Source of the DNA: a virus | Taxonomy: Duplodnaviria; Caudoviricetes | Length of the DNA: 64,000 bases | Strand: one strand, 5' to 3' | IMG/VR virus record: IMGVR_UViG_3300010351_000784 | Coordinates: 1-64,000 of that record | In this document: positions 5,458-54,561 of the stretch, in pieces | Layout: each line of letters opens with the position of its first letter | Numbering within the stretch: position 1 is the first letter of the stretch | The notes under the pieces: model-generated | Database searches by the model: none | What the model was told of the DNA's origin: nothing | What the model saw: only the letters and a program-made list of their open reading frames with translations | Program-made: the position numbers and the translations under genes

Positions 5458-5697
5458 TCACTAAGTTTCTTTTTTTACACTTTCGATGTCATTGGCTTTG
5501 CGGTAAGCATCATAAAGCAGCTTTAAATTGTTGTCCTCTATTTCAGAAACATAAATAGGCTTTCCGCAGTCGGCGCAGTATGCTTCCAAGCCAATAAACG
5601 AATATTCGTTATCCTTCAGAGTTCTCTTAAACACCGTTTCCTTTGTAACAAAACCAACGTCTTTTCTGCATTCAGCACAAAATACTGTTTTATTCAT
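5458..5697 (-). CDS. Stand-alone YgiT/MqsA-type zinc-finger (antitoxin N-domain-like)
   Basis: FCAEC...YCADCGKPIY..EIEDNNLKLLYDAYR; TAG then TGA at end; own promoter. Confidence 0.6.
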
Positions 5698-5917
5698 AAC
5701 AATGCTCCTTTCCTCAACTTTCTATAATAATTATAACAAAAATTATAAAAAATGTAAAGCCCTTTTGGACTTTAAATTTTTTTATTTAAAAATAGAATAT
5801 GATAATTCAAAGATATACATTTCACCGTTAATACGGAAACCACGAAACTCTTCCTGTCCAGCAATCTCTTCAGGAACTTTCCATACACATATAACTACTT
5901 CGATAGGAATATTCAAA

Positions 5918-6211
5918 TTACGCAATTCCTCCTATGACTTCTTTCCACTTAGCGTTAAGTAAGTTGCAGACTTTCTGACAAGCCGCCTTGTCCTTGAAGT
6001 ATCCATAACAGTATCCTTCCTTGCCTTTCAAGGTTGCACCCTGAGACCGAAGGAAACAAAGATAATCGGGATAAGATAGTCCAAGCAGGCGAGAGTCGAG
6101 AACTTGGAAGGAACCACTGAAGATTACTTTATTGTCACGGATGAAATCAATATCATCCATTGCTGCCATCCAGTGACCCTCTTGACAGAGTTCTCTTGGG
6201 AAATATTTCAT
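5918..6211 (-). CDS. Hypothetical protein
   Basis: ORF with RBS. Confidence 0.6.
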   Translation of the reverse strand: MKYFPRELCQEGHWMAAMDDIDFIRDNKVIFSGSFQVLDSRLLGLSYPDYLCFLRSQGATLKGKEGYCYGYFKDKAACQKVCNLLNAKWKEVIGGIA

Positions 6212-6757: not shown

Positions 6758-7087
6758 TCATAAGATTTTCAACTCCTTCCTAATTTTCTCTTTGAAGTTC
6801 ATTACATATTGTGTGTAGATTGGGTCAAGTCTTCTGTCCTCAATCTTCTCCTTATTGTCCTCACACCAAGCGGCACACTCCTTACGAGTATCACCAACAC
6901 AGATACGAGCACCCGAAGCGATATCAGTTGCGACCCATCTCTTGCCATCTGAGGTACGATGGAACCCAATAGCACCGTCTTCAGAAAGCCAACCAGATAC
7001 ATATTCGATTGTATTTTCTGCCACATCAATCATCTGTAATGCGATTGTAGCCTTACGAAATCCCATTTCCTTTACCTCTTTTCTCAT
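6758..7087 (-). CDS. Hypothetical protein
   Basis: ORF behind sigmaA-type promoter. Confidence 0.65.
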   Translation of the reverse strand: MRKEVKEMGFRKATIALQMIDVAENTIEYVSGWLSEDGAIGFHRTSDGKRWVATDIASGARICVGDTRKECAAWCEDNKEKIEDRRLDPIYTQYVMNFKEKIRKELKIL

Positions 7088-7163
7088 TTTCTATATATAT
7101 TATACCAAAAATTTTAGAAAAAGTAAAGGAAAAGGGGAGCAAAAATTTTTACTCCCCTTTGTT

Positions 7164-7457
7164 TTATCTCTTATCTTTTAAGGTATAACCATTCGCAGAG
7201 AAGCGAACTTTTGTGCCGTCCTTGAGAATAATTTCATATGCGTCTTCTTCATATACTCCGGGATGGGAAATAACTGAAGTAACCTCATCTGTGTTATAGT
7301 CCTCGCCGTTAATTGAAATGGTTTCATATGACGAGATTTCAATCATGAAATCTTTCTCATTATCGTTGGCTTTCCATTTAAGAGCGCCGACAAGTAAACC
7401 AACGGCAATCCAGAAAATAATAAAAACAGCAATAAATCCCTTTGCATCTTCGCTCAT
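7164..7457 (-). CDS. Membrane-anchored hypothetical protein
   Basis: N-terminal TM helix. Confidence 0.6.
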   Translation of the reverse strand: MSEDAKGFIAVFIIFWIAVGLLVGALKWKANDNEKDFMIEISSYETISINGEDYNTDEVTSVISHPGVYEEDAYEIILKDGTKVRFSANGYTLKDKR

Positions 7458-7506
7458 TAATCATCACTCCTTAACTCAACTCTGCCATACTTTGATTTCT
7501 CAACTT

Positions 7507-7947
7507 TTACATAGGCAGGATATCCTTCACCTGTCCAAATTCGCCGTGATTAAATCTCTCCGCAACTTCGCCGCGGCAATCGCTCTGGAGTCCCCAAGCG
7601 AAGCCGAATTCGTAAGATTCAAGGTCCTTATAGGTTGCACCAAGTTCGTACTCAATGCAGTCTCCAACCCACTTAATGAACTTCTCTCCCTCATCTGTCT
7701 GAGTAATATTTGAAAAGTCAATACGAAGTACAGACACATCTGCAATGTGACACATTCTAAGAAAACTGATAACAGTCTCCGGAGTGTCGCCGTCAAATAA
7801 TACCAAACCAGCGAAATATTCTCCTGCTTTTACAAGAGGAACGTTGCTGTTTGCATCGTGCTGATTGTGAATATATCCTACATAGTCCATAATGCAGAAA
7901 GTATCTAAGCCCCATCCTTTAAGTGTATCAAAATTAAAATTAGCCAT
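7507..7947 (-). CDS. Hypothetical protein
   Basis: ORF from MANFNF with GGAGG RBS. Confidence 0.6.
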   Translation of the reverse strand: MANFNFDTLKGWGLDTFCIMDYVGYIHNQHDANSNVPLVKAGEYFAGLVLFDGDTPETVISFLRMCHIADVSVLRIDFSNITQTDEGEKFIKWVGDCIEYELGATYKDLESYEFGFAWGLQSDCRGEVAERFNHGEFGQVKDILPM

Positions 7948-8294
7948 TAGTAAACCTCCCAATATTTCTCCACTGCATTCTTCATGTTCTGAACGCCAAC
8001 AGGGTTCATAGAATGGAAGTGGAATTTGAAAACGACATTCTCATCGTGAAAATTCTCAACAAGCCAATCAACCAACTTAATAGCGTCGCCGCCCTGAGAC
8101 GCATAATCACCAAGGTCATGGTCAAGGTCAAACCAAATCTCGTTGATGCCATTCGTAACAGCCTGAAGCACAAAATATTTTGCGCCATTGACGTGCTTAG
8201 TAACGTAGTAGTACTTAAACTGCTTGGTGATGCTTGGAATGTCTGCTTCACGAATATCATCGAGAAAAAGATAAAGTGCGTGACGCTTCTCCAT
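7947..8294 (-). CDS. Cyclic-phosphate-processing receiver-domain protein
   Basis: LFLDDIR...DLDHDLG...HSMNPVG..NM signature. Confidence 0.75.
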   Translation of the reverse strand: MEKRHALYLFLDDIREADIPSITKQFKYYYVTKHVNGAKYFVLQAVTNGINEIWFDLDHDLGDYASQGGDAIKLVDWLVENFHDENVVFKFHFHSMNPVGVQNMKNAVEKYWEVY

Positions 8295-8594
8295 TAGTTA
8301 ATCCTCCTCTTTTTCCTCTGGCGGTCTTTCATCAAGAACAAAGGTTGCCTACCCCTTATCAGTTGCATAGAACTCACGGAGATTGAACCATCTATCCTCA
8401 ATTATATTACCGATTTCGTCGATGGTACTGCCCCACCCATTGGTCTTAACACGAATAATTAGTTGCCATTTTAACATCACTCCTTAAAGTAAATTTAATT
8501 TATATAAAATAGCTTAGGCTCGCTATTTTTACTATAATAATTATGGCAAAAATTATAAAAAAGTCAAGACATTTTGAGCCTTGACTTTTTGCTT

Positions 8595-8909
8595 TTATTC
8601 GGATTCCTTATCAGTATCGGAGGTATCTTCAGGCTGAGGTATGTCTAACCACTGGTCAACTAAGAAATGACCAATAGCAACAACCTTTGCCTTGTCGTCT
8701 TCCTCTTCGATGCAAAGTTTTACGGGTGCGCCAACGAGCTGCTCCCAAGCAGATTTACCTGCAATCGCAATCATCTTCACGATATTCTCTATTGTAGGAG
8801 CAAGTAAAAATGCACATGATGCTTCTTTACCCTTATATGCAAGGGTACAACCAATCTGAATTCCTTCTGCCGTTAAAATAGTCTGCTGAATAATTGCATT
8901 AAGTTCCAT
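8595..8909 (-). CDS. Hypothetical protein
   Basis: MELNAII start after GGAGG RBS. Confidence 0.55.
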   Translation of the reverse strand: MELNAIIQQTILTAEGIQIGCTLAYKGKEASCAFLLAPTIENIVKMIAIAGKSAWEQLVGAPVKLCIEEEDDKAKVVAIGHFLVDQWLDIPQPEDTSDTDKESE

Positions 8910-8973: not shown

Positions 8974-9670
8974 TCATGCGTCTTCATAGTCAGCCGCAAT
9001 CATAATGATATCGTCATATACAATTCTTTGTTTTGTATTAACGATTTTATCACAGTGATAATGTCCACAATATGCGTAGTCATAATCTGCCGTATTAAGA
9101 ACAAGGTCAAGCATAAGGTCTGAACTTGTAGGTGAGAAGCCAAGCATCTTACAAACCTCTGTGCCGCCAGTATGAGTGAAGACAAAATCAACCTTATCAT
9201 TATGCTGGGCAAGAGTAATAAGAGCCTTGTTTGCATCGTCCTGAGTAATACGCTCCTGTTCCCACCAAGAGATACCTTCCTTACGAAAATCCTTATCATG
9301 AGAATCAGCACCATTTACGACAAGGCACTTTTTGTCGCAAAGATTATAGACCTCTCCACTAATTGCATAATAGATTGAGTCATTAACTTTACGAGCAGGT
9401 GTACCGTGGAAGTCCACGATTGGAAGCTTCTCGATAAGATGATAAGCTTCATGGTTACCAAGTACACAGAATGTAGTCCAAGGCTTCTTATCTAAGAAGT
9501 CTTGCCAATATTTATCAATTGCACTTCCATCCCATACAAAACCCGCATCACCCATAATAACAACTATGTCTTCTTTAGTCATATTATCGGGTTTAAAATG
9601 GCGGCTGTTTAATTTAGCAATATCTATCCCTTGGTGCGTATCGCTAACCAGTCACGAAAAGACGTGACAT
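8974..9670 (-). CDS. Calcineurin-like metallophosphoesterase with a 4-nt insertion (TAGC, 9643-9646) in the GDTH motif
   Basis: VTG|DTH, GDAG, GNHE, FTHT, CGHYH motifs. Confidence 0.75.
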
Positions 9671-9704
9671 ATACATCATCTCCTTTAAGGAATTAAATCC
9701 TATA

Positions 9705-9835
9705 ACGTTATTTTTCCTTTTTTGTATAGGGAATTTCAATCAATGGATAATTATACTTTTTACAAAACTATCTTTTTATTTCATCTCTTTCCTATATAAG
9801 TTCTAAAGGAGACGAATTAGAAAAATACTATGTAA
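9705..9835 (-). pseudogene. C-terminal remnant of DUF2726-like homing endonuclease
   Basis: QERDEIKRQFCKKYNYPLIEIPY (TAG=Gln). Confidence 0.6.
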
Positions 9836-9933
9836 GTAACATCATTCATTCATTCATTCATCTAAAACTTTTCTTTTTCCTCAATTTTCTATAATAATTA
9901 TAACAAAAATTTCAAAAAAAGTCAAGGAGTTAA

Positions 9934-10275
9934 TTACCAAGAAATTTCCCTTAAGCCGCCACTTCTATCATAGAATGAAGTTTCCTTTTCTTCTGCGGGA
10001 GATTCTTTTGTTTCTCTTGCATACATTCCCATAGAGGGGTATAAATCCTCACCCTGAAATGTAATCCAATGCTCTTTTGCATGGAATTCAACGTCATAGC
10101 TTTTGCCGCCAAAGGTATTGAATCTTTGATTTATGAGCATACAATTATCAATGTCCTTAAAATTTAATAGGACTTCATTTCCTTCTTCGTCATGTCCTAT
10201 TATAATAACTTGCTCAATATTTTTAGCCTCAGCCATCACAACCCTCGCAAGTAAATACTTCCATAGACTGACCAT
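9934..10275 (-). CDS. Hypothetical protein
   Basis: ORF; likely start at MAEAK. Confidence 0.5.
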   Translation of the reverse strand: MVSLWKYLLARVVMAEAKNIEQVIIIGHDEEGNEVLLNFKDIDNCMLINQRFNTFGGKSYDVEFHAKEHWITFQGEDLYPSMGMYARETKESPAEEKETSFYDRSGGLREISW

Positions 10276-11857
10276 TCCTAAACTTCAAAAGAGGCTGGAT
10301 TGTTTCCTTTTTTGCCTTAAGAGCAAGCAGTACATCTGTAATGATAAAATCATAGAACTTCTCTGTGCCAAGACCAAGAGTATATGGAATACTGTGGTCA
10401 TCAAGGAAGAACTGAATTCTATCGCCGATTTCATTTGACTCTGCTTCGGTCTGATTTCTGCCGATTGGGCTGTACGGCTTATCTCTTACAATTCCATAGT
10501 TCATATTGTCATAAGTATTGAATACATCAAGAACGAGCTGTTCATAGTGTTCACCAAGAACTGGATTTGTATTGTAGAAGATACCAAGAGGAAGAGGGCT
10601 ATCAGTTATAATTACATCGACCTTATCGCGGCAACGCTTCATTCTGAAAGACTGCTTGCCAAAGGTGTATTCCTGACAACTCAAAGCTTGTTTATTTTCT
10701 TCCCACGTGAAGTCTTTCGCTACTTCTGTAACTAGTTCGCAATTAACACCCATCATTTTTAGTTGTGAAAAAATATAAGCTGCCCCTGTTGAATTATGAA
10801 CAACAGTACAATCATCAAGAACAAAACGGTGATTACCATCTGTCGTAAAGCCAAAAAATTCGTCTTCTCCAAGAGGCATTATCTCAAAGCATTCTCTTAA
10901 TGGTTTTGTTATATCTTTAATTATATTTTTACATATTTTTCGTGGAATTTTTACAGGAATAGTGGTAAGGTCTCCAGTAATATTAACTCTCCAATATTCT
11001 CCAACAAAATCTCCACAAGATTTTTTACAAGAAGTAATTGTCGCTCTAAGTCCACAACTATTAACTAAACAGTAAAAATCATAAGCTAAAGTCTTATTTT
11101 TATTCATCCAATCATAAGAAGTTCTATTAAGATTTCCATCAGAATCAATCAACCCAGCAATAAGAGCAAGTCTATTTTCTAAAGTTGCTGTTCTATATTC
11201 TTTAGGGATGTGCTTATTTTTAATGAGATTATATATATTGCCACTTAACTGATGATGGGCTCCTCCAATATTTCCTTTTGTTAAACAATACGTTTGGCAT
11301 TTGCTATCTTTATAAGAATGTTGTTTTAATTCAAGCCCCAATTCCTTTGCATAATATCTACAATAATCAACTATCTCTTGGTCAGCAGTACAAAAACGGT
11401 TTATAGATTCGCTTAGTCCATCTCCAAGCCAATAACCTAAATAATAAGGGTCAATTTTCAAGCTCTGTCTCTCTGATTGAGTAAAGAATCCTACTTTTGT
11501 TTTATATAATCTCGCATAGTGTTTATATTGAACACCTTTATTAAGATAATCTTCAATAGAAATATCTTCATGAGACCAGCTCTTATCTCTATGATAGCAC
11601 ATTAAAGATAAAATATGATTTGCACTTACAACGATATCTTTTGAAAAACTTCTTTTAAGAAGATACATTGGCGCTCTACCCTGATGTAATTCAAGAACTT
11701 TTCGTGGGGTAGAGTCATCTCCCATAACCCAATCTCCCACCATTACGTCTTCAATATTTTTTATCTCACCATTCCACATAAGAACTTTAGTTCCTTTTGC
11801 AAAACATTTGCCGCTACCCGGTGCTCCGAATAGATTAACTACAATTGGTCTTTTCAT
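10229..11857 (-). CDS. NadR/AAA_28-like P-loop kinase with intein
   Basis: GAPGSGK|...|STGAA, TEVAK, ITDSP, GRNQT. Confidence 0.8.
   Translation of the reverse strand: MKRPIVVNLFGAPGSGKCFAKGTKVLMWNGEIKNIEDVMVGDWVMGDDSTPRKVLELHQGRAPMYLLKRSFSKDIVVSANHILSLMCYHRDKSWSHEDISIEDYLNKGVQYKHYARLYKTKVGFFTQSERQSLKIDPYYLGYWLGDGLSESINRFCTADQEIVDYCRYYAKELGLELKQHSYKDSKCQTYCLTKGNIGGAHHQLSGNIYNLIKNKHIPKEYRTATLENRLALIAGLIDSDGNLNRTSYDWMNKNKTLAYDFYCLVNSCGLRATITSCKKSCGDFVGEYWRVNITGDLTTIPVKIPRKICKNIIKDITKPLRECFEIMPLGEDEFFGFTTDGNHRFVLDDCTVVHNSTGAAYIFSQLKMMGVNCELVTEVAKDFTWEENKQALSCQEYTFGKQSFRMKRCRDKVDVIITDSPLPLGIFYNTNPVLGEHYEQLVLDVFNTYDNMNYGIVRDKPYSPIGRNQTEAESNEIGDRIQFFLDDHSIPYTLGLGTEKFYDFIITDVLLALKAKKETIQPLLKFRNGQSMEVFTCEGCDG
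10793..11806 (-). mobile_element. Class 1 intein with LAGLIDADG endonuclease (338 aa) in Walker A
   Basis: CFAKGT start, LGYWLGDG and LIAGLIDSDG, ends VVHN before Ser. Confidence 0.9.
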
Positions 11858-15452: not shown

Positions 15453-15529
15453 TGGTACTCCGAGTGGGACTCGAACCCGCAACACACCATGTTTAAGACG
15501 GATGCCTCTACCAATTGGATTACCGGAGC
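15453..15529 (-). tRNA. tRNA-Leu(TAA), short variable arm, encoded CCA
   Basis: GCTCCGG/TCGGAGT acceptor, loop CT-TAA-AC, GGTTCGAGTCC T arm, ACCA end. Confidence 0.85.
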
Positions 15530-42903: not shown

Positions 42904-43545
42904 TTAATTAAATTCTAAACATAAAGCTCCATTTGTTAAGAACTTTTTATCATTTAAAGTTATCTGTTTAATATTGTTGCTTTCTGTAGTTTGCGTTCTG
43001 ACTGCAAAACAAACATGAGGAATATATTCTCCTTCAGGACTGCCAAGTAATAATGGAAGAATTTGTGTTAAAGGAGCCTACTTATTTTCATATTCATAAT
43101 ATGGAGGTACAACATTATCCTCATAAGTCATTGCCGGCGTAGTGGGATATGAAGTATTATAAGCAATCACTGCATTTTTGCCTGTTTGGGTTTTTGCAAA
43201 AATAATAGCTTTGGTTGACCACATAATAGCAATACTGTAATCTGTTATTATAACTCTGGGGTCAACGGATAATGATGATAAATTATTTTCAGATGAAGGT
43301 CCTAAAGAATAAAGAATAACTTTGTTTGATGTCGATGACGTTAATGAAGCTGGCACGCTAATCTAACAAACAACCCTATCTCCTTTTTTAAAATTCAATT
43401 CATTGATTACAGGAGAAGACTCCCTATCTACAGTAAGAACAGTACTATCGAAATAGTCAACATCCAACTCATCAAGAGTTGCTTTTAATGAACTTAACCA
43501 AGTGAACTAATCAGTTTTATCAATTTGTATAATTGTATATGCCAT
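42904..43545 (-). CDS. Hypothetical tail-region protein (213 aa, TAG=Gln)
   Basis: Open under code 15, coupled to upstream stop. Confidence 0.65.
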
Positions 43546-46500
43546 TATTCTTCAACCTCCTCTGCATTTCCAGTTTCTCCTTCGGTAGAAATTGTTCCTA
43601 CTTCCATTTCAGTATTCGCCGCGATAGCTGATGGATTTGTTATAAAATCCTTCAAAGCTTTAAGCTAAGCAAGTGTAAATGATACCTCTCCCTCTGCTGA
43701 AGTGCCACCAAATGTTACAAAAGTTGTATCCCATTTTGTTTCAGCTTTAATTGAAGCACCATTTGTAAGTCTGAGTTCAGAAGAACCAATCATTTCAAAT
43801 ACTGGGTCGGTACCGTTACTTAATACTTCATTATACATCTATGGGTCTTTAGTAAGGAACTTAACAATAATAGCTCCACTATCTTCTTGAAGTTCAATTA
43901 TCTTTGAAATGTTGTCTACTGTATAGCCTAAATCAGTTAACATAGCAGGATAATCCGCGCCATTTAAAAACTGAGTTATAACATCATAAATACTCTATGC
44001 AAAATCATATGTCTCTTGAGGACTCTGAATTACATATACAAGATATGGAATTTGATAAAAAATCTGTGCGGACTAAAAACCAATATCGTTTATTAAATAT
44101 ATCTCAGTAAGTTTTGGTATTTCTCCATTTCTGCAGAATATTTGTCTTCTAAAGATTTCATAGTCTGGACCCGATTCAAATGCTGCAATAAGTGCCGCCT
44201 ATGAATCATTAGGATTATAAGTCTGTGTACATCTAAACGCAAAACAATATGTATTATCTTCATTATATTGTTTATCATTTCTTAAGCAAATATTTGCTTT
44301 ATCATAAAGCTGAAGTACCGGTCCATCTTGTGCATCTCTTTCTGACTGAATTGGTAATCTCCAGTCTGCACCAATATGAGTGCCATTACTATATCTATAT
44401 GCGCTAACTGTTGTTGAATATTTTAAGTTTGGATTTGGACCATTTTCAACAACTTTTGCATTAGTTGTTGTTTTAGGAGTAATATAAATTTTATTCTTAT
44501 CTTCGGTAGAAAGATTATCATAAGGTGTATCAATTGCGTATTGAGTGTTAGAGGTAAATGATACTCTTACATTTTTCATATAGCCATAGAAATGATAGGT
44601 ATATCTCTTATTAGTTCCAGAACCACTTTCAGTTCTTTGATTACAAGCATATGAACTATAAAATTCTGCATTAGGACCAAAATTATATGCCATTTGAGCT
44701 TTTACATAAGGGTCATTCAAAATTGCCGCGGTTTGTGAGGTAGTGTATTCGGTATATGAATAAAAGCTATATCTATTATTTGGACCGCCATTGCGATAAA
44801 GAGTAAATCCTTCAACGACAATTTTATAAAATTCCCTTTTGGGTGTTGATGCTACAATTCCACCATCATAATAATTACGTCCAACACTTGAGAACTGGTT
44901 TGTCTCAGAAACTTTATCAATTAGTTCAGTCTTATCTGCTGGAGCAAAATCATCAACAGTTAAACCTGTGTAATCTACATTAGTTTCAAATGTAATAGCC
45001 TCTTCTTGAGTAGCAATACTTATAGTAGGTTGTAAATATGTCCATCTCTCTTCCTAAGGTGCTGCAGAAATAAGTGTAATACTTTCTACATTATTAACTG
45101 TATCATTGTTAATATCAAGATAAGGGCTTACAGTTTTCTGAATAAAAACATTATTTCTTTCTGTTGCGCCAATAATTATAATATCTTTAAATTGAGCAAG
45201 CGTCATAGTCCCATTTGCTTCAATATTGTCAATAATATCGAGAATTTCAGTATTGTTACTATTTGAAAGAGTAATTAACATCTTCATCACAAATTGTGTA
45301 ACAGTTTCGTTATCATTGTATTCACCAGTTAAATTGATTTCGTATCTCTTTCTATTAGAAGATATAGATATTGGCTGTCTATGTGTTTTACCTCTTAAGA
45401 TAATAGTTGTATCATCAAGTGCTTCAAAGTGGTCTTTACCCTCCATCTGTACAAAGCCATCTTTACTTTCAATAATAGCTTCAAAAGACTTCCACTGACA
45501 TACGATATCAGTATATGTTGGAGTAAAACCAATACCACAATGACTCTCTGGAGCAAAGTTTAATGAGCATACATTATGAGGAGTAAATAAAGCGGTTACA
45601 TTAGCACCACTATTTGGGCAAATTTTATAGTAAATATTAGAACTGCCGGAGTCTCCCATGTCAAGTACAACCTTAGAATTTGTACCATATCCAATTTTAA
45701 CATCTACATCTGAGCCGGGACTGTCCGTCCAGTCAATACTTAAGCAACCTCGTGTTGCAACTTTGGCATTAAGTACGCCTGAATCACCAAATACTACACA
45801 AGTTCTTCCTTGTGCACCTAAAGTTGGCTACTTATATTTATTATTGAAGCTACTTATATTGCCACCGTCATATCCGCCATTATAAACTTTACTTCTTACA
45901 AACTTAGCTGCTAATGGAGACGCTGAAGAGTAAAGGCTCATAATTCTATTCTTAGGTCCGCCATTATTTATAAGTATATTAGCAATGTTTCCTGCAGGCT
46001 CATCAGAATTATTATGTTTAACCTATGTAGTCATAAAGACTTGTCCATCATTTCCATCATCAGCAGATAAATATAAGTAAGGTACATATCCCTCTGAACT
46101 ACCTGTAGACATTTTTACATTTGCGCCGTGTTCGATAAGGATTCTTGTATCTCCAAACTATGAAGGTGACCAAGAAGTACTTCCTCCAATACCGTTAATT
46201 TTTACAGAAGCATTACCTGAAATCTCTACTCCTGCACCGTCTGCCATTTTAATAAGAGACGCGCCCTCCATATAAATTGTACTGCTATTTGCCATATGAA
46301 GATAAGGGAATGGAGGGTCATCACTTAATTTATGACCAAAAGGTCCGGTTAAATCACCATAAATTGTTGATGCCAACCAAGACATTGGTGGGTTAGAAGA
46401 GGCATAATATCCCTATCTCATACTTCTTGTAATATTTGCCTATGCACCATATCCAAATTTATCTATTTCAATAATTCCGCCGCCATTCATTGAGAATATT

Positions 46501-46994
46501 GGACCACGTATTGTCTATTCAGTTTCATCATTTATCATACTGAAATAAGAGTTTCCGCCCATAAAGAAATCAAGACTCTTAATTGGAGTATCCCAATAAG
46601 TAGAGTTTCCGACTTCTGCAGTGCTCTTTATTTCAAAATCTGGAAGTGGTGTTTGTAAGATAGATTTTCTTGTGTCAGCTTTACTATATATCTGTCCTAT
46701 ATTGCCTTTTGCCCAATTTTCTCCATCACCAACAAGAACCTAATCTTCTTCGGCATCAATATCGCCGCCGCCGCCGCCGCCGCCTGCTTCACCAAGCTTG
46801 AAATGGTCTCTTGACTCTTTTGTGCCCGGCTCTGCATCGGGGTCAGCAGGGACTCTGATTACTGCAATCTTCTCTTCTTCTCCAATAGGAGGTCCTTCAA
46901 CAAGAACATCACTTAAATCAGAAAGGACATTATCAATTATTTGCGCACTGGCATTTTCACCTTCTACTTGCCAGTAGTGTCCGTTTTCTGCCAT
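43545..46994 (-). CDS. Large tail fibre/spike-like protein (1149 aa, TAG=Gln)
   Basis: Four in-frame ORFs join; poly-Gly linker, beta-rich. Confidence 0.7.
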
Positions 46995-47260
46995 CAATCT
47001 CCCTCCTTTACATCTATAAATTTATTATCATAACTACAAATAAATTTGCCATCATAGCTCATTAAATTTGGAGCTTTAATCTTAACCTCTTTATCTGCTT
47101 CAGCATCTATATCAATGCTCTTTCCTTCAATCTGAATTGTCATATTGGTAGTAGCATGGATATTATCTTTAGCAAGAAAGTTATATTTAAGTCTTGTATC
47201 AGAGGTTATTATTTCTTCAATCTCCTAATCAACGTCAGGAATAAAATTATTCCATCCCAT
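46994..47260 (-). CDS. Hypothetical protein (88 aa)
   Basis: MGWNNFIPDVDQ.. with RBS. Confidence 0.55.
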
Positions 47261-47445: not shown

Positions 47446-47574
47446 TTAATTCTTTTCTAATATTAATTCAACTTCTTCATGAGTTAGCCATTTGCCTTCT
47501 GCCTTTTTTACCCATTCCTCAGACCAAACTCCTTCTTTATAATACTTCTTAATTTTTTCAAACATTTTACTCAT
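47446..47574 (-). CDS. XkdX-family protein
   Basis: MFEKIKKYYKEGVWSEEWVKKA..KWLTHEE. Confidence 0.75.
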   Translation of the reverse strand: MSKMFEKIKKYYKEGVWSEEWVKKAEGKWLTHEEVELILEKN

Positions 47575-47908
47575 TATCAATTCCTCCTATAAGGTCTTCA
47601 CCATTAATCATCAAAAGATAATCAATAGTCGCATTTACCTTTTCAAGTGCGATTCTATATTCTCCACTTTTATCAATATTTTTAGTATAATCAGAAACAA
47701 TATACCAAGTGTAATGTCTACCAATACTATCCATATCTTCTTTGATTAATCTTTCAATTTTACAAGACTCAGTAACTTCTATATATTCATCCTTTAAAGT
47801 AAAAGTCTAATAATGACCAATAGGATACTTTGTTTTATCACCAATAGTAGAGAGAATAATAACATCATTACCCTCAAATTCTCCTCTTTTAAAACTATAT
47901 TCTAACAT
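47567..47908 (-). CDS. Tail-fibre-associated hypothetical protein (113 aa)
   Basis: ..ATIDYLLM end preceding XkdX; GGAGG RBS. Confidence 0.65.
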
Positions 47909-48053
47909 TTAATCGCCTCCTGTTATTGCTTACGATTTGCTTCATCATTCCATTTATCCAACTTGGAATATATCTTTTCGAAATAGAACGATGATTACAC
48001 CATTTTAACTATCCTATTCGAGCAATTAATCCTGCCGCAAGCCAATGTACTAT
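47889..48053 (-). pseudogene. C-terminal stump of DGR reverse transcriptase
   Basis: HWLAAGLIARIGQLKWCNHRSISKRYI..MKQIV resembles the thumb-region end of Firmicutes-phage DGR RTs; no start codon. Confidence 0.6.
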
Positions 48054-48059
48054 TTATAT

Positions 48060-48079
48060 TAACGTAAAAAATTACGTTA
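48060..48079 (-). promoter_or_regulatory. Hairpin 3' of VR (DGR homing cruciform-like)
   Basis: TAACGTAA-TTTT-TTACGTTA just after the target stop. Confidence 0.55.
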
Positions 48080-48081
48080 TT

Positions 48082-49695
48082 TTAATTTGTTGAAGGTATC
48101 TTCTATAGTCGGACGCCGATGTTGAGGCCCTGGCCGACAGCCCTGAGGCTCCCGGACAGTAAGAACAAACCGCGGTACGGGTACGAGATATAGAGACCAC
48201 CAACGCACAACACAACACCATTAACATTGAAGTGGCAGCTATCAGGTATTTGATTTTGACTACTTGCTGTATCACCATTTCCAGGATACAACACCCAATC
48301 AAATCCACTAACATTTGACTAATCAAATTCCTAAATATAATTTGATACATTAGCTCTTCGTCCAACTAATACTGCACCTGACGCACTATAACTATCTGAA
48401 TAATTCTCAAAATCTTCAAAACAATAGATACCTTCTCCAGTATTATTATTTTCATCAGGTCCAAAGGTAATTCCATCGCACCAGTCACAAACATTACCCC
48501 AGGGGTCTTCAATATATCTATATTGAACACCAACCCCATAAGTTGTTTTTGAAGCCTACATAGTTCCAGTATGATATGGCATAGTATCTGTAGAGCCAGT
48601 ATTTTCTTTTGACTTATCATTACCACAGTTATAGCCAATCATTGACTATGTATCCCAGTTGGCAAATTCAACAAGATATAACATCCAAATTGTTATCCAA
48701 AGACTAAAATCAAGCTGATAATATCCGCTTCCTATTGCTGCCTAATTAGTTCTCGCTGTTGCTCTGGTAATACTCGCAATTGGAATTACACCACTTGTTG
48801 ATTTATAGTTGCTATTAGAATGATAACGTCCAATGTAAACATAGTCTTGCTCGGGATATGAACCTCTTGCTCTATGTGCAGGACTTACATTAAAGCCAGT
48901 TTTTGGAGCATCGGCAATCTAAATTGAGAATTTTGAATTTGTTTTTTCAATTTTATACCAGAATTTTGGAATTTTAACAACTTCATTCCCATCAACTGTT
49001 TCTCTTACCATTCCATTCCAAGGATAAAGATTATCAAATGGTGAGCCACAATCTTCAGCACTCATACCATTATTTACATATGGTACTGGATTAGTAAACT
49101 CCGCCGCGGCATCTGTTCTTGATAAAGTTTTGCCAGTTAGCCCCCATTCAACACCATAAACAACAACAAAAGTTAATTCAACATCATAAATTTTAGATGT
49201 TGTAAAGTTAATTATTTTACTAATGACTTTTCCATTTAAAGAAGCAGAGAAAGTCCATTCGCCACATGAAGGAATTAACATCTTAAGGTGAGTCTATTCC
49301 ATTGTGGCAGTAAGAATTATTGTTCCATTTGTTGCAGTTATTATTGCGCCACTATCCGCGATAATGTTTGCACTTGGATAAGTAATTGCTGCAAGTTCAT
49401 CAATCGCTGCCTAAATATTAGTTGCTTCAAGATAAGAAATCTCAGATGCAGTAGTTGGAATTGTAGGTTTGTTTTTAATATAATCATCTTTGGAATTATC
49501 TGCCTAATTCCAATCAGATTGAATATTAACCATGTCAATGAGAGCATTTTCAACATCAGAAAAACTATCAAGCGTTTCTCCATCTTTGATAGCAGCAATC
49601 TCAGCTCTTGCAACTCTATCTTCTGATGCGCCTGCGCCTGCGCCTCCACCTCCACCTCCACCTATGAAAGGATTAAACATATTCATCATTCCCAT
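48082..49695 (-). CDS. DGR target protein copy 1 (537 aa; C-type-lectin-fold VR ~48103-48240), probable receptor-binding protein
   Basis: YRYIEDPWGNVCDWCDG...GG....GLF....IGVRLQK. Confidence 0.85.
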
Positions 49696-49711
49696 TATAT
49701 CACCTCTCAAA

Positions 49712-49753
49712 TTATGTAATAAAAGGTTCCCAGAGATATCCAATTCTTTTCAA
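49712..49753 (-). pseudogene. N-terminal stump of DGR reverse transcriptase (MKRIGYLWEPFIT*)
   Basis: TTG start with AGGAAGTG RBS; MKRxGxL start typical of DGR RTs. Confidence 0.55.
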
Positions 49754-49766
49754 TTTCTTCACTTCC

Positions 49767-51386
49767 TTAATTTGTTGAAGGTATCTTCTATAGTCGGACG
49801 CCGATGGCGTCGTTCTGGTAGGGAGCCGTGTAGTGCCCGCCCAGGCAGAACAAACCGTAGCTCGCGTACTGGCCATAGCAACCACCAATGTACAACACAA
49901 CACCATCAGCATTGAAGATGCTGCTATCAGGTACTTGATTTTGACTACTTGTTGTATCACCATTTCCAGGATACAACACCCAATCAAATCCACTAACATT
50001 TGACTAATCAAAATCCTAAATATTATTTGATACATTAGCTCTTCGTCCAACTAATACTGCACCTGACGCACTATAACTCTCTGAATAATTCTCAAAATCT
50101 TCAAAACAATAGATACCTTCTCCAGTATTATTATTTTCATCAGGTCCAAAGGTAATTCCATCGCACCAGTCACAAACATTACCCCAGGGGTCTTCAATAT
50201 ATCTATATTGAACACCAACCCTATAAGTTGTTTTTGAAGCCTACATAGTTCCAGTATGATATGGCATAGTATCTGTAGAGCCAGTTTTTTCCTTTGAAAT
50301 GTTATTACCACAGTTATAGCCAATCATTGACTATGTATCCCAGTTGGCAAATTCAACAAGATATAACATCCAAATTGTTATCCAAAGACTAAAATCGAGT
50401 TGATGATATCCGCTTCCTATGGCCGCCTAATTAGTTCTCGCTGTTGCTATGGTAATATTTGTAATCGGAACTACACCACTTGTTGATTTATAGTTGCTAT
50501 TAGAATGATAACGTCCAATGTAAACATAGTCTTGCTCAGGATATGAGCCTCTTGCTCTGTGTGCAGGACTTATATTAAAACCAGTCCTTGGAGCATCGGC
50601 AATCTGAATTGAAAGTTTTGAACTTGTTTTTTCAATTTTATACCAGAATTTTGGAATTTTAACAACTTCATTCCCATCAACTGTTTCTCTCGTCATTCCA
50701 TTCCAAGGATAAAGATTATCAAATGGTGAACTACAATCTTTAGCACTCATACCATTGTTTACATATGGTACTGGATTAGTAAACTCTGCCGCGGCACCTG
50801 TTCTTGATAAAGTTTGGCCAGTTAATCCCCATTCAACACCATAAACATTATCAAAAGTTAATTCAACATCATAAATTTTAGATGTTGTAAAGTTAATTAT
50901 TTTACTAATGACTTTTCCATTTAAAGAAGCAGAGAAAGTCCATTTACCACATGAAGGAATTAACATCTTAAGGGGAGTCTATTCCATTGTGGCAGTAAGA
51001 GTTATTGTTCCATTTGTTGCAGTTATTATTGCGCCACTATCCGCAGTAATGTTTATACTTGGATAAGTAATTGCTGCAAGTTCATCAATCGCTGCCTAAG
51101 TATTAGTTGCTTCAAGATGAGATATGGTATTATCATAAGAAATCTCAGATGCAGTAGTTGGAATTGTAGGTTTGTTTTTAATATAATCATCTTTGGAATT
51201 ATCTGCCTAATTCCAATCAGATTGAATATTAACCATGTCAATGAGAGCATTTTCAACATCAGAAAAACTATCAAGCGTTTCTCCATCTTTGATAGCAGCA
51301 ATCTCAGCTCTTGCAACTTCATCTTCTGATGCGCCTCCACCTCCACCTCCACCTATGAAAGGATTAAACATATTCATCATTCCCAT
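49767..51386 (-). CDS. DGR target protein copy 2 (539 aa; VR ~49788-49925)
   Basis: Near-identical to copy 1 except VR. Confidence 0.85.
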
Positions 51387-51397
51387 TATATCACCTC

Positions 51398-51685
51398 TCA
51401 AATTATGTAATAGATGTTACCAGTGAAAGCGGTTTCAAATTTGAGACTCCAAATATTCATACCTCTTTCTCCAGTAAAAGGAGTCACAAAGTGACCTACT
51501 GCTGGTATTTCCATTTCTTCATTGGAGTCATTAAGATAAAACTTGGTACTAGCAGTTCCTTCAAATCCCACGAATCTGAGAGAAGAACCCATACTAATAT
51601 TATCGTTTTCCCTTACTGACGCCTTGATTAATGGTACGCAATTTTCCATTGCTCCAGCTGTGCATTTCCACATTCTGTATTCCAT
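51398..51685 (-). CDS. Hypothetical structural-region protein
   Basis: ORF with GGAGG RBS. Confidence 0.65.
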   Translation of the reverse strand: MEYRMWKCTAGAMENCVPLIKASVRENDNISMGSSLRFVGFEGTASTKFYLNDSNEEMEIPAVGHFVTPFTGERGMNIWSLKFETAFTGNIYYII

Positions 51686-51697
51686 ACCATCGCCTCC

Positions 51698-51958
51698 TTA
51701 AATAATTTCTTCACCATATTGGTTAAAAATACTCTTGACTCTACTCATTTGTTCAGGATTATCAATTAATATTTTAATTGTATCTCCCTATAAGAAGCGT
51801 CCTGATAATATTCCTATTAAAGATTTACCATTCACTCTTCTGTCATTTGCTCTATATAAAAAAACACTTGAATTTATTTCTTTTAATGAGAATATTAAAT
51901 TCGCAGCGTTTCTTTTCGAAAGATTTTGTGTGAGATAATATGTACAATCCATCATCAT
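51698..51958 (-). CDS. HPr-like protein (TAG=Gln)
   Basis: RRVNGKSLIGILS..GDTIKI. Confidence 0.65.
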
Positions 51959-52079
51959 CAACCCCCAATTATTATAATAGCATGACGCCGCCTAAAAGTC
52001 AAGCAATTAACAAAATCTTGACTTTTTGATAATTTTATGATATAATAAAAGTATCAAAAAAAAGGAGCGTGAACACACG

Positions 52080-52991
52080 ATGTTAAATATTGAAATGTCT
52101 GAGCGTATTAAAAAACTCAGAACAATAAATCATTTTAATTTTATTGGTCCTTTCTTTAATGATAAATAGAAGGACACAGATTTTTCTATTGGAAGCGCAA
52201 TCAGAGAAATAATTATAAGATATGATTATGAAATAAAACATAATTACACATTTGTAATTAAGTATGATAAGGATATTTATTCATCTTTGGCTTATCGCAT
52301 GATTTACAGCGCGGGTTCTGTTTTACAGAAAACTATTGATATTAAAATTCTTGGTGATATTGACACTCCAGAAGAGAAAGAAATTTTTAAGGATATCCCA
52401 GTAATAGGCTATCGTAAAGCACGAAAGCTGAAGAAGGTTGTCTTCATAACTGGTTATCATCCTATTTATAATGTAATTAACCTAAGCTCTTACTCTAAGA
52501 CTTTTATTGAAATCTTCAATCCAATTGAAAGATTTTTGCCTGATTCGCTTACAATGGCACAAGAGTTTTATCTTAAGCCGGAGAGTCAATTATGGAGTCT
52601 TTTTCTTGAAATGAGAGAGGATAATTACCTTGATTCAAATTGGGAGAGCGTAATTAATAAAACAATTCCAATTGTTGTTTTTAAACTTGAGGGTAATGAG
52701 AACGATTTCCCTGTTTTCAATTTCATCTTAAAGTCTTCAAAGGAAGGTAATATTCATATGTATATTGTTGAAAATGAAGAAGCAGCAAAATTCATTACCG
52801 ATAATTTAAGAATTTATGTTGACACTCGTAATGTTCCTTCTGAATTGAATATTATAAATAATGAAGAATATATAGATATGATAAGTAAATTTACACTTAA
52901 TTCAAAAATTGAAATTATAAATGAAATTCTTTTCTTTGATAAGAATACATTACCCGAGGAGGAGGATGAAAATGAAAATCATGGTCGTTAA
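52080..52991 (+). CDS. Hypothetical protein (303 aa, TAG=Gln)
   Basis: Promoter at 52018, AGGAG RBS. Confidence 0.7.
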
Positions 52992-54561
52992 TGGGCGCGG
53001 CGCGTCAGGTAAAGCTTTACCAAATTCAACTTTAATTCCTACACCAAATGGATATAAAAAGGTTGGAGAAATAAAGGTAGGAGATTTTCTTTTTGATAGA
53101 AAAGGAAATCCAACCAAAGTATTGGGCGTATTTCCATAGGGAGAAAAAGAAGTATATAAAGTTTATTTTAAAAATGGAAAAGTTGCAGAATGTTCTGAAG
53201 AACACTTATGGAATATACATAAACAAAGTTGGCATAGGGAGAAAAGTAAAAATAAATTTGAGCCATACACCTTAAAGCAAATTATTGAAGAAGGAGTTAA
53301 AGTTTCTGATAAAGCAGGATACCGATTTAAGATTCAAAACAATGAAGCAGTAAAATACCCTCATCAAAATTTAAAAATTCATCCTTATGTATTTGGCGTT
53401 TTTCTTGGTGATGGGTCTTGTTTAGAAAGACAATTAACTCTATCATCTAATGATATTGAGATTGTTGAAAGAGTTAATACCTTACTAAACGCAGGAGGGT
53501 ATGTTAAAAAAAGTAAATTTAATTATAACTGGTATTTTTTGAATAGAGAAAAAAAGAAAAATAAAAATAATACGGATGTTAAATATATTCAAACATTAGA
53601 TTTATTTAAAAATTATAGTGATAATATATGTCAATTAAGTTATAATAAAAGTATTCCAGATATTTATAAGTATAGCTCAATTGAACAAAGAATAGACTTA
53701 TTATAGGGATTGATGGATACTGATGGTTCAATTGATAAAAACGGAAATATTAAATTTACTTCAACAAGTAAAATATTGATATATGACGTTAAAGAAATTA
53801 TTGAATCATTGGGCTATTGGGCTACTATATATAAAGATACAAGAAATGATAAATATACTAATGAAATTTGTTATCAATTAGGCATACATATGAATAATAA
53901 AGAAAAGGAAAAATTATTCTTTTTATCAAGAAAAAAAGATGTAGCAAAAGCCTTGCCAATTTCTATATTTGATTATAATACAACCCAAATTATTAAAATT
54001 GAAAAAACAAATAAAAAAGAAGAAATGACTTGCTTTTTGGTTGATAATAAAGAACATTTATTTTTAATGAATAATTATATCGTCACTCACAATACTACAT
54101 TTGAAACAATGGTACAAAAGATTGCCGCGGCAAGAGGAAAGGAAGTAAAAGTCATTTCTACTATTACGTATGTAAAGGAAATTGCAAAGCTGTTTGGTTG
54201 GGATGGCGGTAAGACTCCAGAAGATAGACGATTCCTCTCAGACCTCAAAGATGCTCTAACTCGTTGGAAAGACCTTCCGTATCAGAAGGTTAAGAGCTTT
54301 ATTGAGACTTATGAACAAAGTGATACTGACCTCTTATTTATTGATTGCCGCGAGCCTGAAGAAATTGCAAGATTCGTTAATGATTATGGCGCGCTTACAA
54401 TTCTCGTTCAGCGTGGAGAGTTTGAATTGCTCGGCAACCATGCTGATGATAATGTTCTTAATTATCAGTACGATGTAGTTATTGATAATAACAGAGGGCT
54501 TGACGAGTTAATGCAGGAAGCCACTATTTTTGAAGAAACTTTTGTAGATGAAGAAGATTGA
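52972..54561 (+). CDS. P-loop (dNMP-kinase-like) protein with intein
   Basis: NGRGASGK|..|TTF, GWDGGK...RRFLSDLK, FIDCREPEEI. Confidence 0.8.
53014..54093 (+). mobile_element. Class 3-type intein (Ala1; W-C-T) in Walker A, 360 aa, two TAG=Gln
   Basis: ALPNST start, EHLW, LLQGLMDTDG, MTCFLV, IVTHN|T. Confidence 0.85.

Follow-up and report, generated by a model that had tools for sequence, protein, structure and literature searches.

The stretch analyzed here, called the window below, is the first 64 kb of a linear, metagenome-derived viral contig of 94,474 bp (IMG/VR record IMGVR_UViG_3300010351_000784; Caudoviricetes), and it holds the remains of a diversity-generating retroelement (DGR). 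Two tandem copies of the DGR target gene, A and B, each end in a variable region (VR), and two short stumps of the reverse transcriptase (RT) gene stand on either side of copy B. With no RT domain and no template repeat (TR), the locus is not a functional DGR but a DGR remnant. We consider it likely that a 1.69-kb segment was duplicated in tandem within this lineage and that the TR and the RT were then removed by deletions at short microhomologies.

The absence of these parts extends over the whole 94,474-bp record. A scan for a TR by the VR pattern, run on both strands, returned only the two VRs, and ATCGGCGTCCGAC, with up to two mismatches allowed, occurs just twice. Neither the RT domain RVT_1 nor the Avd family (PF05635) found a match, and a search with the RT protein of the relative L002 matched the C-terminal stump alone; RT residues 1-12 and ~305-359 are all that remain. 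The initial annotation of the locus had reported the window to be without TR and avd, which holds for the record as a whole, and had proposed that the mutator was deleted, which is borne out by comparison with six relatives whose cassettes are intact.

Homologues of the target number in the thousands, 27 of them at 82-89% identity, and nine related loci were examined. Six of these (L002, L084, L085, L087, L089, and L091) keep the target with its VR, a hairpin, and a TR ~316 nt downstream of the VR start, and in every one the cassette sits exactly at the window's stump site. Their TRs are almost identical. L002, L084, L087, and L091 have a complete RT of ~360 aa, followed by a 113- to 116-aa gene and XkdX; the contigs of L085 and L089 end inside the RT. 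In all six, as after copy B, the hairpin directly follows the target stop codon; it is conserved, with a stem of 8 bp and a loop that ranges from 2 to 4 nt among relatives (4 in the window and in L002). A further close relative, G001, is a 122,745-bp contig that ends exactly inside the VR (L001:8135-8225), as expected if hypervariation in a population breaks assembly.

The RTs of L002 and L087 match RVT_1 (E 1e-11), and the best solved match of the relatives' RT is a 328-aa "Reverse transcriptase" (8ub7-8ube; E 2e-19), with which the IGxxxSQ motif aligns and which we take to be the Bordetella phage DGR RT. Judged by these similarities, the missing gene is a DGR-type RT. Between target and RT the intact relatives carry the TR alone, and the clade appears to be without avd. 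DGR RTs normally have the motif YMDD. The RT clade to which L002 belongs (45-100% identity to the L002 RT, including L005, L006, and L007; L087:4814-5899, residues ~218-227) has YMDN, its Asn aligned with the second Asp of YMDD in 8ub7, and phage DGR RTs found at greater distance in that search retain YMDD or YCDD. Because relatives with YMDN show clean adenine-specific VR variation, the YMDN enzyme appears to be active.

RT stumps, junctions, and tandem target genes

All the elements of the initial annotation are in place: the two target copies, a frame opening with a ribosome-binding site (RBS) and TTG, the hairpin, a startless frame, the hypothetical gene, and XkdX (Table 1). The N-terminal stump, read from the TTG at 49753, gives MKRIGYLWEPFIT and a stop at 49712, and the 5' end of the L002 RT gene shows 96% identity to a 56-nt segment at 49717-49772. 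The intact RT of L087 opens at a TTG with MKRVGYLWESFIS, and the stump thus corresponds to RT residues 1-12. The C-terminal stump lacks a start codon, and the next gene has its RBS and its start within the 3' end of the stump. Both alignments agree with the earlier suggestion that the stumps resemble the termini of DGR RTs.

When mapped by blastn, the window proved colinear with L002 except for three breaks, and adjacent segments overlapped by 5-6 nt, which implies three microhomology junctions (J1 to J3). At J1, the equivalent of L002 8329-8734 is missing, that is, 406 nt comprising the hairpin, a spacer, the TR, and the spacer between TR and RT; no hairpin folds downstream of copy A. At J2, 45 nt from J1, the N-terminal stump meets the duplicated block at TATTACATAA, the last bases of gene X, as had been noted from the window alone. 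At J3, the equivalent of L002 8373-9669 is missing, that is, 1297 nt comprising the TR and ~297 RT codons. The initial annotation described an RT split around a duplicated target. RT remnants do lie on either side, but a simple insertion does not account for the layout, which needs the duplication joint at J2 and deletions at both J1 and J3, each removing one copy of the TR. Simple homologous recombination between VR and TR was considered for J1 and rejected, as the joint falls at the stop codon, 22 nt beyond the end of VR/TR homology and, on the other side, 116 nt beyond the end of the TR.

Copies A and B form a direct repeat of ~1.69 kb and are the only target copies in the 94-kb record; exact look-ups of their two products found neither on record elsewhere. 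Upstream of the VR they differ at 64 of 1471 nt (4.35%) and by indels of 12 and 18 nt. Both are intact, and outside the VR a dN/dS of 0.42 indicates purifying selection on them, a pattern that fits both being in use. Among relatives, the N-terminal part of the DGR target changes in length through repeated segments (e.g., L002 6132-6860), giving proteins of 537 to 834 aa. A candidate second tandem case, L086, was set aside, as it is one target gene called as two open reading frames (ORFs) through a single in-frame TAA; at this site (L086:8590-8630) the window has GAA, and the TAA may be a nonsense mutation or a sequencing error.

In total, these observations are consistent with a history that starts from the order kept by the six intact relatives: gene X, target with VR, hairpin, TR, RT, and the 113-aa gene. 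We posit that illegitimate recombination at the 5-nt microhomology of J2 produced a tandem duplication of the 1.69-kb segment that reaches from the last bases of gene X into the RT gene, as far as codon 12. The J1 deletion would then have taken the hairpin and TR that followed copy A, and the J3 deletion the TR and ~297 RT codons that followed copy B. The duplication is proposed to have preceded the two deletions. The locus has lost the means to diversify itself and encodes two co-oriented tail-fiber-like proteins, apparently co-transcribed.

Could the second copy have come from another phage? The same end state might be reached by copy-choice recombination with a co-infecting relative, possibly in one template-switching event with several jumps, and a single replicative event of this type would be expected to leave the same microhomology signature at all three junctions. 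The divergence of 4.35% with its two indels is also much for a recent duplication, and the terminal branches of the two copies are long (0.039 and 0.045, versus 0.01 for P0001). Against such a donor, a tree of 36 homologues, though only a quick one, pairs A and B as sisters (SH-aLRT 95) with no other sequence closer to either, and no donor lineage was found. We regard copy-choice recombination as quite unlikely, and duplication within the lineage as the simplest reading of how the tandem would have arisen.

Table 1. Features of the DGR remnant, and window segments aligned to the intact relative L002
Feature	Window position	Strand	L002 position	Content or basis
Gene X, 95-aa hypothetical	51398..51685	-	5689-5988	ORF; homologous to L002 segment; no Pfam match
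Target copy A, 539 aa	49767..51386	-	6861-8328	Tail-fiber-like; in-frame TAG = Gln; 93% identical to L002 segment
Variable region A, 140 nt	49793..49932	-		Ends in GC-rich ATCGGCGTCCGAC; aligned with VRs and TRs of relatives
J1	49767..49772	-		Copy A stop-codon region joined to RT ribosome-binding region; microhomology ATTAA
RT N-terminal stump	49712..49753	-		RBS + TTG, 12 RT codons (MKRIGYLWEPFI), then T + TAA from joined sequence
J2, tandem-duplication joint	49717..49721	-		RT codon 12 joined to 3' end of gene X; microhomology TATTA
Target copy B, 537 aa	48082..49695	-		In-frame TAG = Gln; 85% identity to copy A over C-terminal 350 aa
Variable region B, 140 nt	48108..48247	-		Aligned with VRs and TRs of relatives
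Hairpin downstream of VR-B	48060..48079	-		8-bp stem, 4-nt loop; DNA fold -7.8 kcal/mol, z -3.2
J3	48038..48043	-		Post-hairpin spacer joined to ~RT codon 310; microhomology GCT.G
RT C-terminal stump, ~50 codons	47889..48043	-		No start codon; L002 RT residues 305-359, 69% identity, E 9e-21
113-aa hypothetical gene	47567..47908	-		Follows RT in all relatives; no Pfam match
XkdX-family small phage protein	47446..47604	-		Pfam PF09693, E 1.9e-6
Aligned segment	51234-49767		6861-8328	Target A through stop codon
Aligned segment	49772-49717		8735-8790	RT RBS and first codons; 96% identical
Aligned segment	49721-49541		5974-6131	Gene X end and target start
Aligned segment	49531-48038		6861-8372	Target B, hairpin, spacer start
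Aligned segment	48043-47300		9670-10419	RT C terminus and downstream genes

Variable regions and alternative readings

The two VRs differ from each other at 37 of 140 nt and 23 of 55 residues (dN/dS ~30). The nucleotide differences fall at 25 of 39 TR-adenine sites and at only 12 of the 101 other sites (Fisher p 2e-9), the adenine sites being those of the relatives' TRs, since the window's own TR is gone. Chance is excluded as the source of this pattern. Measured against the relatives' TRs, then, the target gene carries at its 3' end a VR with the adenine-specific substitutions of a DGR, and the tandem genes are the two already-diversified alleles that the initial annotation had supposed; both VRs were evidently written by DGR adenine mutagenesis before the loss. 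Each also keeps a GC-rich 3' end, with the downstream hairpin present after copy B and lost at J1 after copy A.

A second class of differences bears on what happened afterwards. Compared with the consensus TR, VR-A has 18 mismatches at adenine sites and 7 elsewhere and VR-B has 21 and 11, whereas the VRs of the six intact relatives, each compared with its own TR, have 15-23 and 0-3. The non-adenine excess in the window is significant (p 9e-6 versus four intact relatives) and implies that a TR of the consensus type has not been rewriting these VRs recently, which argues against diversification in trans by co-infecting relatives. All but one of the 14 non-adenine positions fall at codon positions 1-2 (codon positions were assigned by hand); the exception, a third codon position, is position 88 in VR-B. 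The excess fits both a lost TR with more adenines than those of the relatives and amino-acid-changing point mutations after the loss. We therefore dropped the non-adenine mismatches as a firm argument for dating the loss, given that changes at codon positions 1-2 could equally stem from extra adenines in the lost TR. Synonymous differences between the VRs amount to 0.5, versus ~3 expected from the gene-body dS of 0.079; this near absence weakly suggests that refreshment of both VRs went on while the copies were already diverging, and hence that the duplication preceded the loss.

Non-adenine differences between VR and TR also recur within the intact cassettes. A C>T change at alignment position 41 is found in five of the six relatives (e.g., L002:8202), and the GGC codon at VR/TR positions 122-124 differs between VR and TR in L002 (8283-8284) and L089. 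On these alignments, adenine mutagenesis from the present TRs is no explanation for such differences.

Several points weigh against the history that we propose. The layout is known from one assembled contig alone, and exact searches found no second contig with any of the junctions (J2 was sought in viral and metagenome contigs, J1 and J3 in viral contigs). Copies A and B share identical runs of 182 and 142 nt, within which a short-read assembler could switch between strain haplotypes inside the gene body, so that J1/J2 and J3 may come from different molecules. With an estimated completeness of 57%, the record leaves room for an RT and a TR elsewhere. The non-adenine excess at codon positions 1-2 could reflect a lost TR richer in adenines, which leaves the loss undated. 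Finally, the dual specificity of A and B is itself putative.

One rival reading is an assembly artefact, in which the tandem would be a chimera of strain haplotypes or of chimeric reads that exists in no single genome. The contig is metagenome-derived, the shared runs exceed the usual k-mers, the junctions are absent from independent contigs, and the break of L001 inside its VR indicates that assemblers struggle at this locus. However, the three junctions are new sequence joined through ~5 nt of homology, and De Bruijn graphs do not create such joints. The short spacing of J1 and J2 means that single reads must run from the end of VR-A through the RT stump into the beginning of the following copy, and at least one haplotype must therefore contain the tandem. 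The ORFs of both copies are intact and their divergence follows a coherent pattern, and an independent deletion of RT and TR in another relative, L090 (see below), shows such losses to be real in the clade. An artefact of this kind is, in our judgment, highly improbable.

The incompleteness of the record bears instead on whether a DGR still acts in trans, an alternative raised by the initial annotation: an RT and TR in the unassembled ~43% of the genome, or in co-infecting relatives, might be rewriting one or both VRs. The phage is large, and its relatives measure ~170-190 kb. Apart from the linear, incomplete state of the record, both VRs retain the ATCGGCGTCCGAC end, copy B retains the conserved hairpin, VR synonymous sites are almost undiverged, and DGR targets remote from their RT are known, for example in Treponema denticola (PMC4891356). 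Set against this are the absence of RT and TR from 94 kb, the position of the cassette at the stump site in all six intact relatives, the absence of an RT elsewhere in the 122.7 kb of G001, and the mismatches described above, counted against a near-invariant clade TR. Diversification in trans thus strikes us as very unlikely.

Under the preferred reading, a tandem duplication followed by the loss of TR and RT, the C-type-lectin ligand-binding faces of A and B would differ at the 23 of 55 VR residues noted above. What might the two proteins do at present? We suggest tentatively, with rather less than even confidence, that they could supply two fixed binding specificities from the same virion population. 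The stable dual tropism that the initial annotation saw as gained in exchange for hypervariation would be a conjectural benefit of such a pair. A more extended proposal, about which we are doubtful, would combine at least two DGR losses in this clade, by different routes, with retention of the window's two frozen VR alleles, co-expressed as a fixed two-specificity receptor-binding set whose VRs adapt by point mutation at codon positions 1-2.

A second loss, the target fold, and neighboring genes

The relative L090 (a 130-kb contig; target P0025; L090:7300-7560) has a single target whose stop codon lies 19 nt before the 113-aa gene. A clean deletion has removed the equivalent of L002 8332-9789, that is, hairpin, TR, and RT. 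Its VR departs from the consensus TR at 27 non-adenine sites, in 17 cases at a third codon position, and the GC-rich end carries mutations too. L090 and the window thus belong to the same clade and have lost TR and RT at the same locus, but L090 did so by one clean deletion and with a single target. From this comparison, the L090 loss is evidently independent of the window's, and DGR loss evidently recurs in the clade. Third-position drift in the VR would make the L090 loss the older and the window's the younger, by that yardstick.

No Pfam family matches the target protein, the 113-aa gene, or gene X. For the C-terminal 350 aa of the target, AlphaFold2 modeling from 53 aligned sequences gave a pLDDT of 94.3 and a pTM of 0.94, and the best Foldseek matches of the model in the PDB are TaqVP (5vf4; E 3.7e-10), TvpA (2y3c; 1.2e-3), and Mtd (1yu4; 1.5e-3), followed by formylglycine-generating enzymes (FGEs). 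As modeled, the target C terminus is a C-type-lectin/FGE-like variable-protein fold, with the VR predicted to form the binding face.

The target lies in a tail/lysis module, followed by XkdX, a 1150-aa protein, and, further downstream, a GH25/GH113-type region. Under translation table 11 the minus-strand late genes are fragmented, and with TAG read as Gln they become long ORFs. The recoding is evident inside the window, where an in-frame TAG in copy B (SI-TAG-IAD) stands opposite a CAG in copy A, and the TAG right after both VRs aligns with a CAG in L002. Minus-strand late genes of the window carry up to 13 TAG codons each. The sole tRNA detected in the window is tRNA-Leu(TAA) at 15453-15529, and no suppressor tRNA-CTA was seen there. 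Standard-code gene callers would shred genes recoded in this way.

Just upstream of the tail-fiber module, an HPr-like protein (51698-52006, minus strand; PTS-HPr, E 3e-8) is conserved in most relatives examined and was not called in L090. On the plus strand, the 546-aa ORF at 52921-54561 is a P-loop protein of small size (186 aa in L002) in which GASGK is followed at once by an intein-like insert bearing LAGLIDADG-type sequence; L086, L089, and L090 have a 529-aa form with Hom_end/LAGLIDADG_3 matches, and L002 and L001 are without the insert. The module downstream of XkdX differs among relatives (window 43545-47260 versus L084:9973-14016 and L087:6348-11386), and a 730-aa LRR_5 protein present in L084 and L087 is absent from the window.

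Comparison with known systems

DGRs have mostly been catalogued intact, and how and when they are lost has been treated largely in theory, which predicts loss in stable environments (bioRxiv 10.64898/2026.02.18.706561). In the clade described here, one orthologous locus can be seen in three states: with the cassette intact, recently decayed in a complex way that left readable scars, and cleanly deleted at an earlier time. From this series the events can be put in order, with target duplication first, VR diversification next, and removal of TR and RT last, and third-position drift in a VR that is no longer refreshed from a TR gives a rough clock. If the two losses and the frozen alleles are as we propose, this is a natural series for testing when hypermutation gives way to fixed alleles, and if both frozen alleles are used, it shows how a hypervariable receptor-binding gene can become a fixed repertoire of two genes. 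Searches for DGRs that require an RT and a TR will miss loci of this type.

The prototype for comparison is the DGR of Bordetella phage BPP-1 (Mtd, TR, and bRT). As in BPP-1, the target is of the phage receptor-binding type with a C-terminal C-type-lectin VR, and Mtd is among the fold matches; the relatives' RT is most similar to 8ub7 and carries IGxxxSQ. VR variation likewise follows TR adenines, and a GC-rich VR 3' end is followed by a hairpin (PMC3240598). Efficient retrohoming in BPP-1 depends on a hairpin/cruciform a short way downstream of the VR (PMC3240598), and copy A, being without one, would make a poor homing target even if RT and TR were supplied. Unlike in BPP-1, the RT core and the TR are deleted in the window, the element is dead, and the target is duplicated in tandem. 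The window phage and its relatives also differ from BPP-1 in being without avd, in the order target-TR-RT, in an RT with YMDN for YMDD, and in TAG-recoded genes.

Closer in outcome are cellular genomes. Isolates of T. denticola that lack RT and TR keep two to six DGR target genes (PMC4891356); as in the window, core DGR parts have been lost and VR-bearing FGE/C-type-lectin targets kept, some of whose VRs have excess non-adenine mutations (PMC4891356). That case, however, concerns a bacterial chromosome with dispersed targets, for which no RT stumps or deletion junctions are described (PMC4891356), whereas the scars in the window permit a base-by-base reconstruction of events. In cyanobacteria, all3226 of Nostoc PCC 7120 and a degraded cassette in Anabaena sp. 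90 are DGR remnants (PMC7517822). Like the window, these have a target paralogue and remnant TR-VR homology with no RT nearby, and the authors of that study suggest that selection of a good variant is followed by removal of the components for diversification (PMC7517822). The cyanobacterial remnants differ in lying in a cellular genome, with transposase-associated dispersal (PMC7517822); the window shows a tandem duplication in a phage tail-gene module and deletions at microhomologies. DGR loss with retained targets has thus already been described, in Treponema and in cyanobacteria, and the window is a further and unusually legible example of it, in a TAG-recoded phage.

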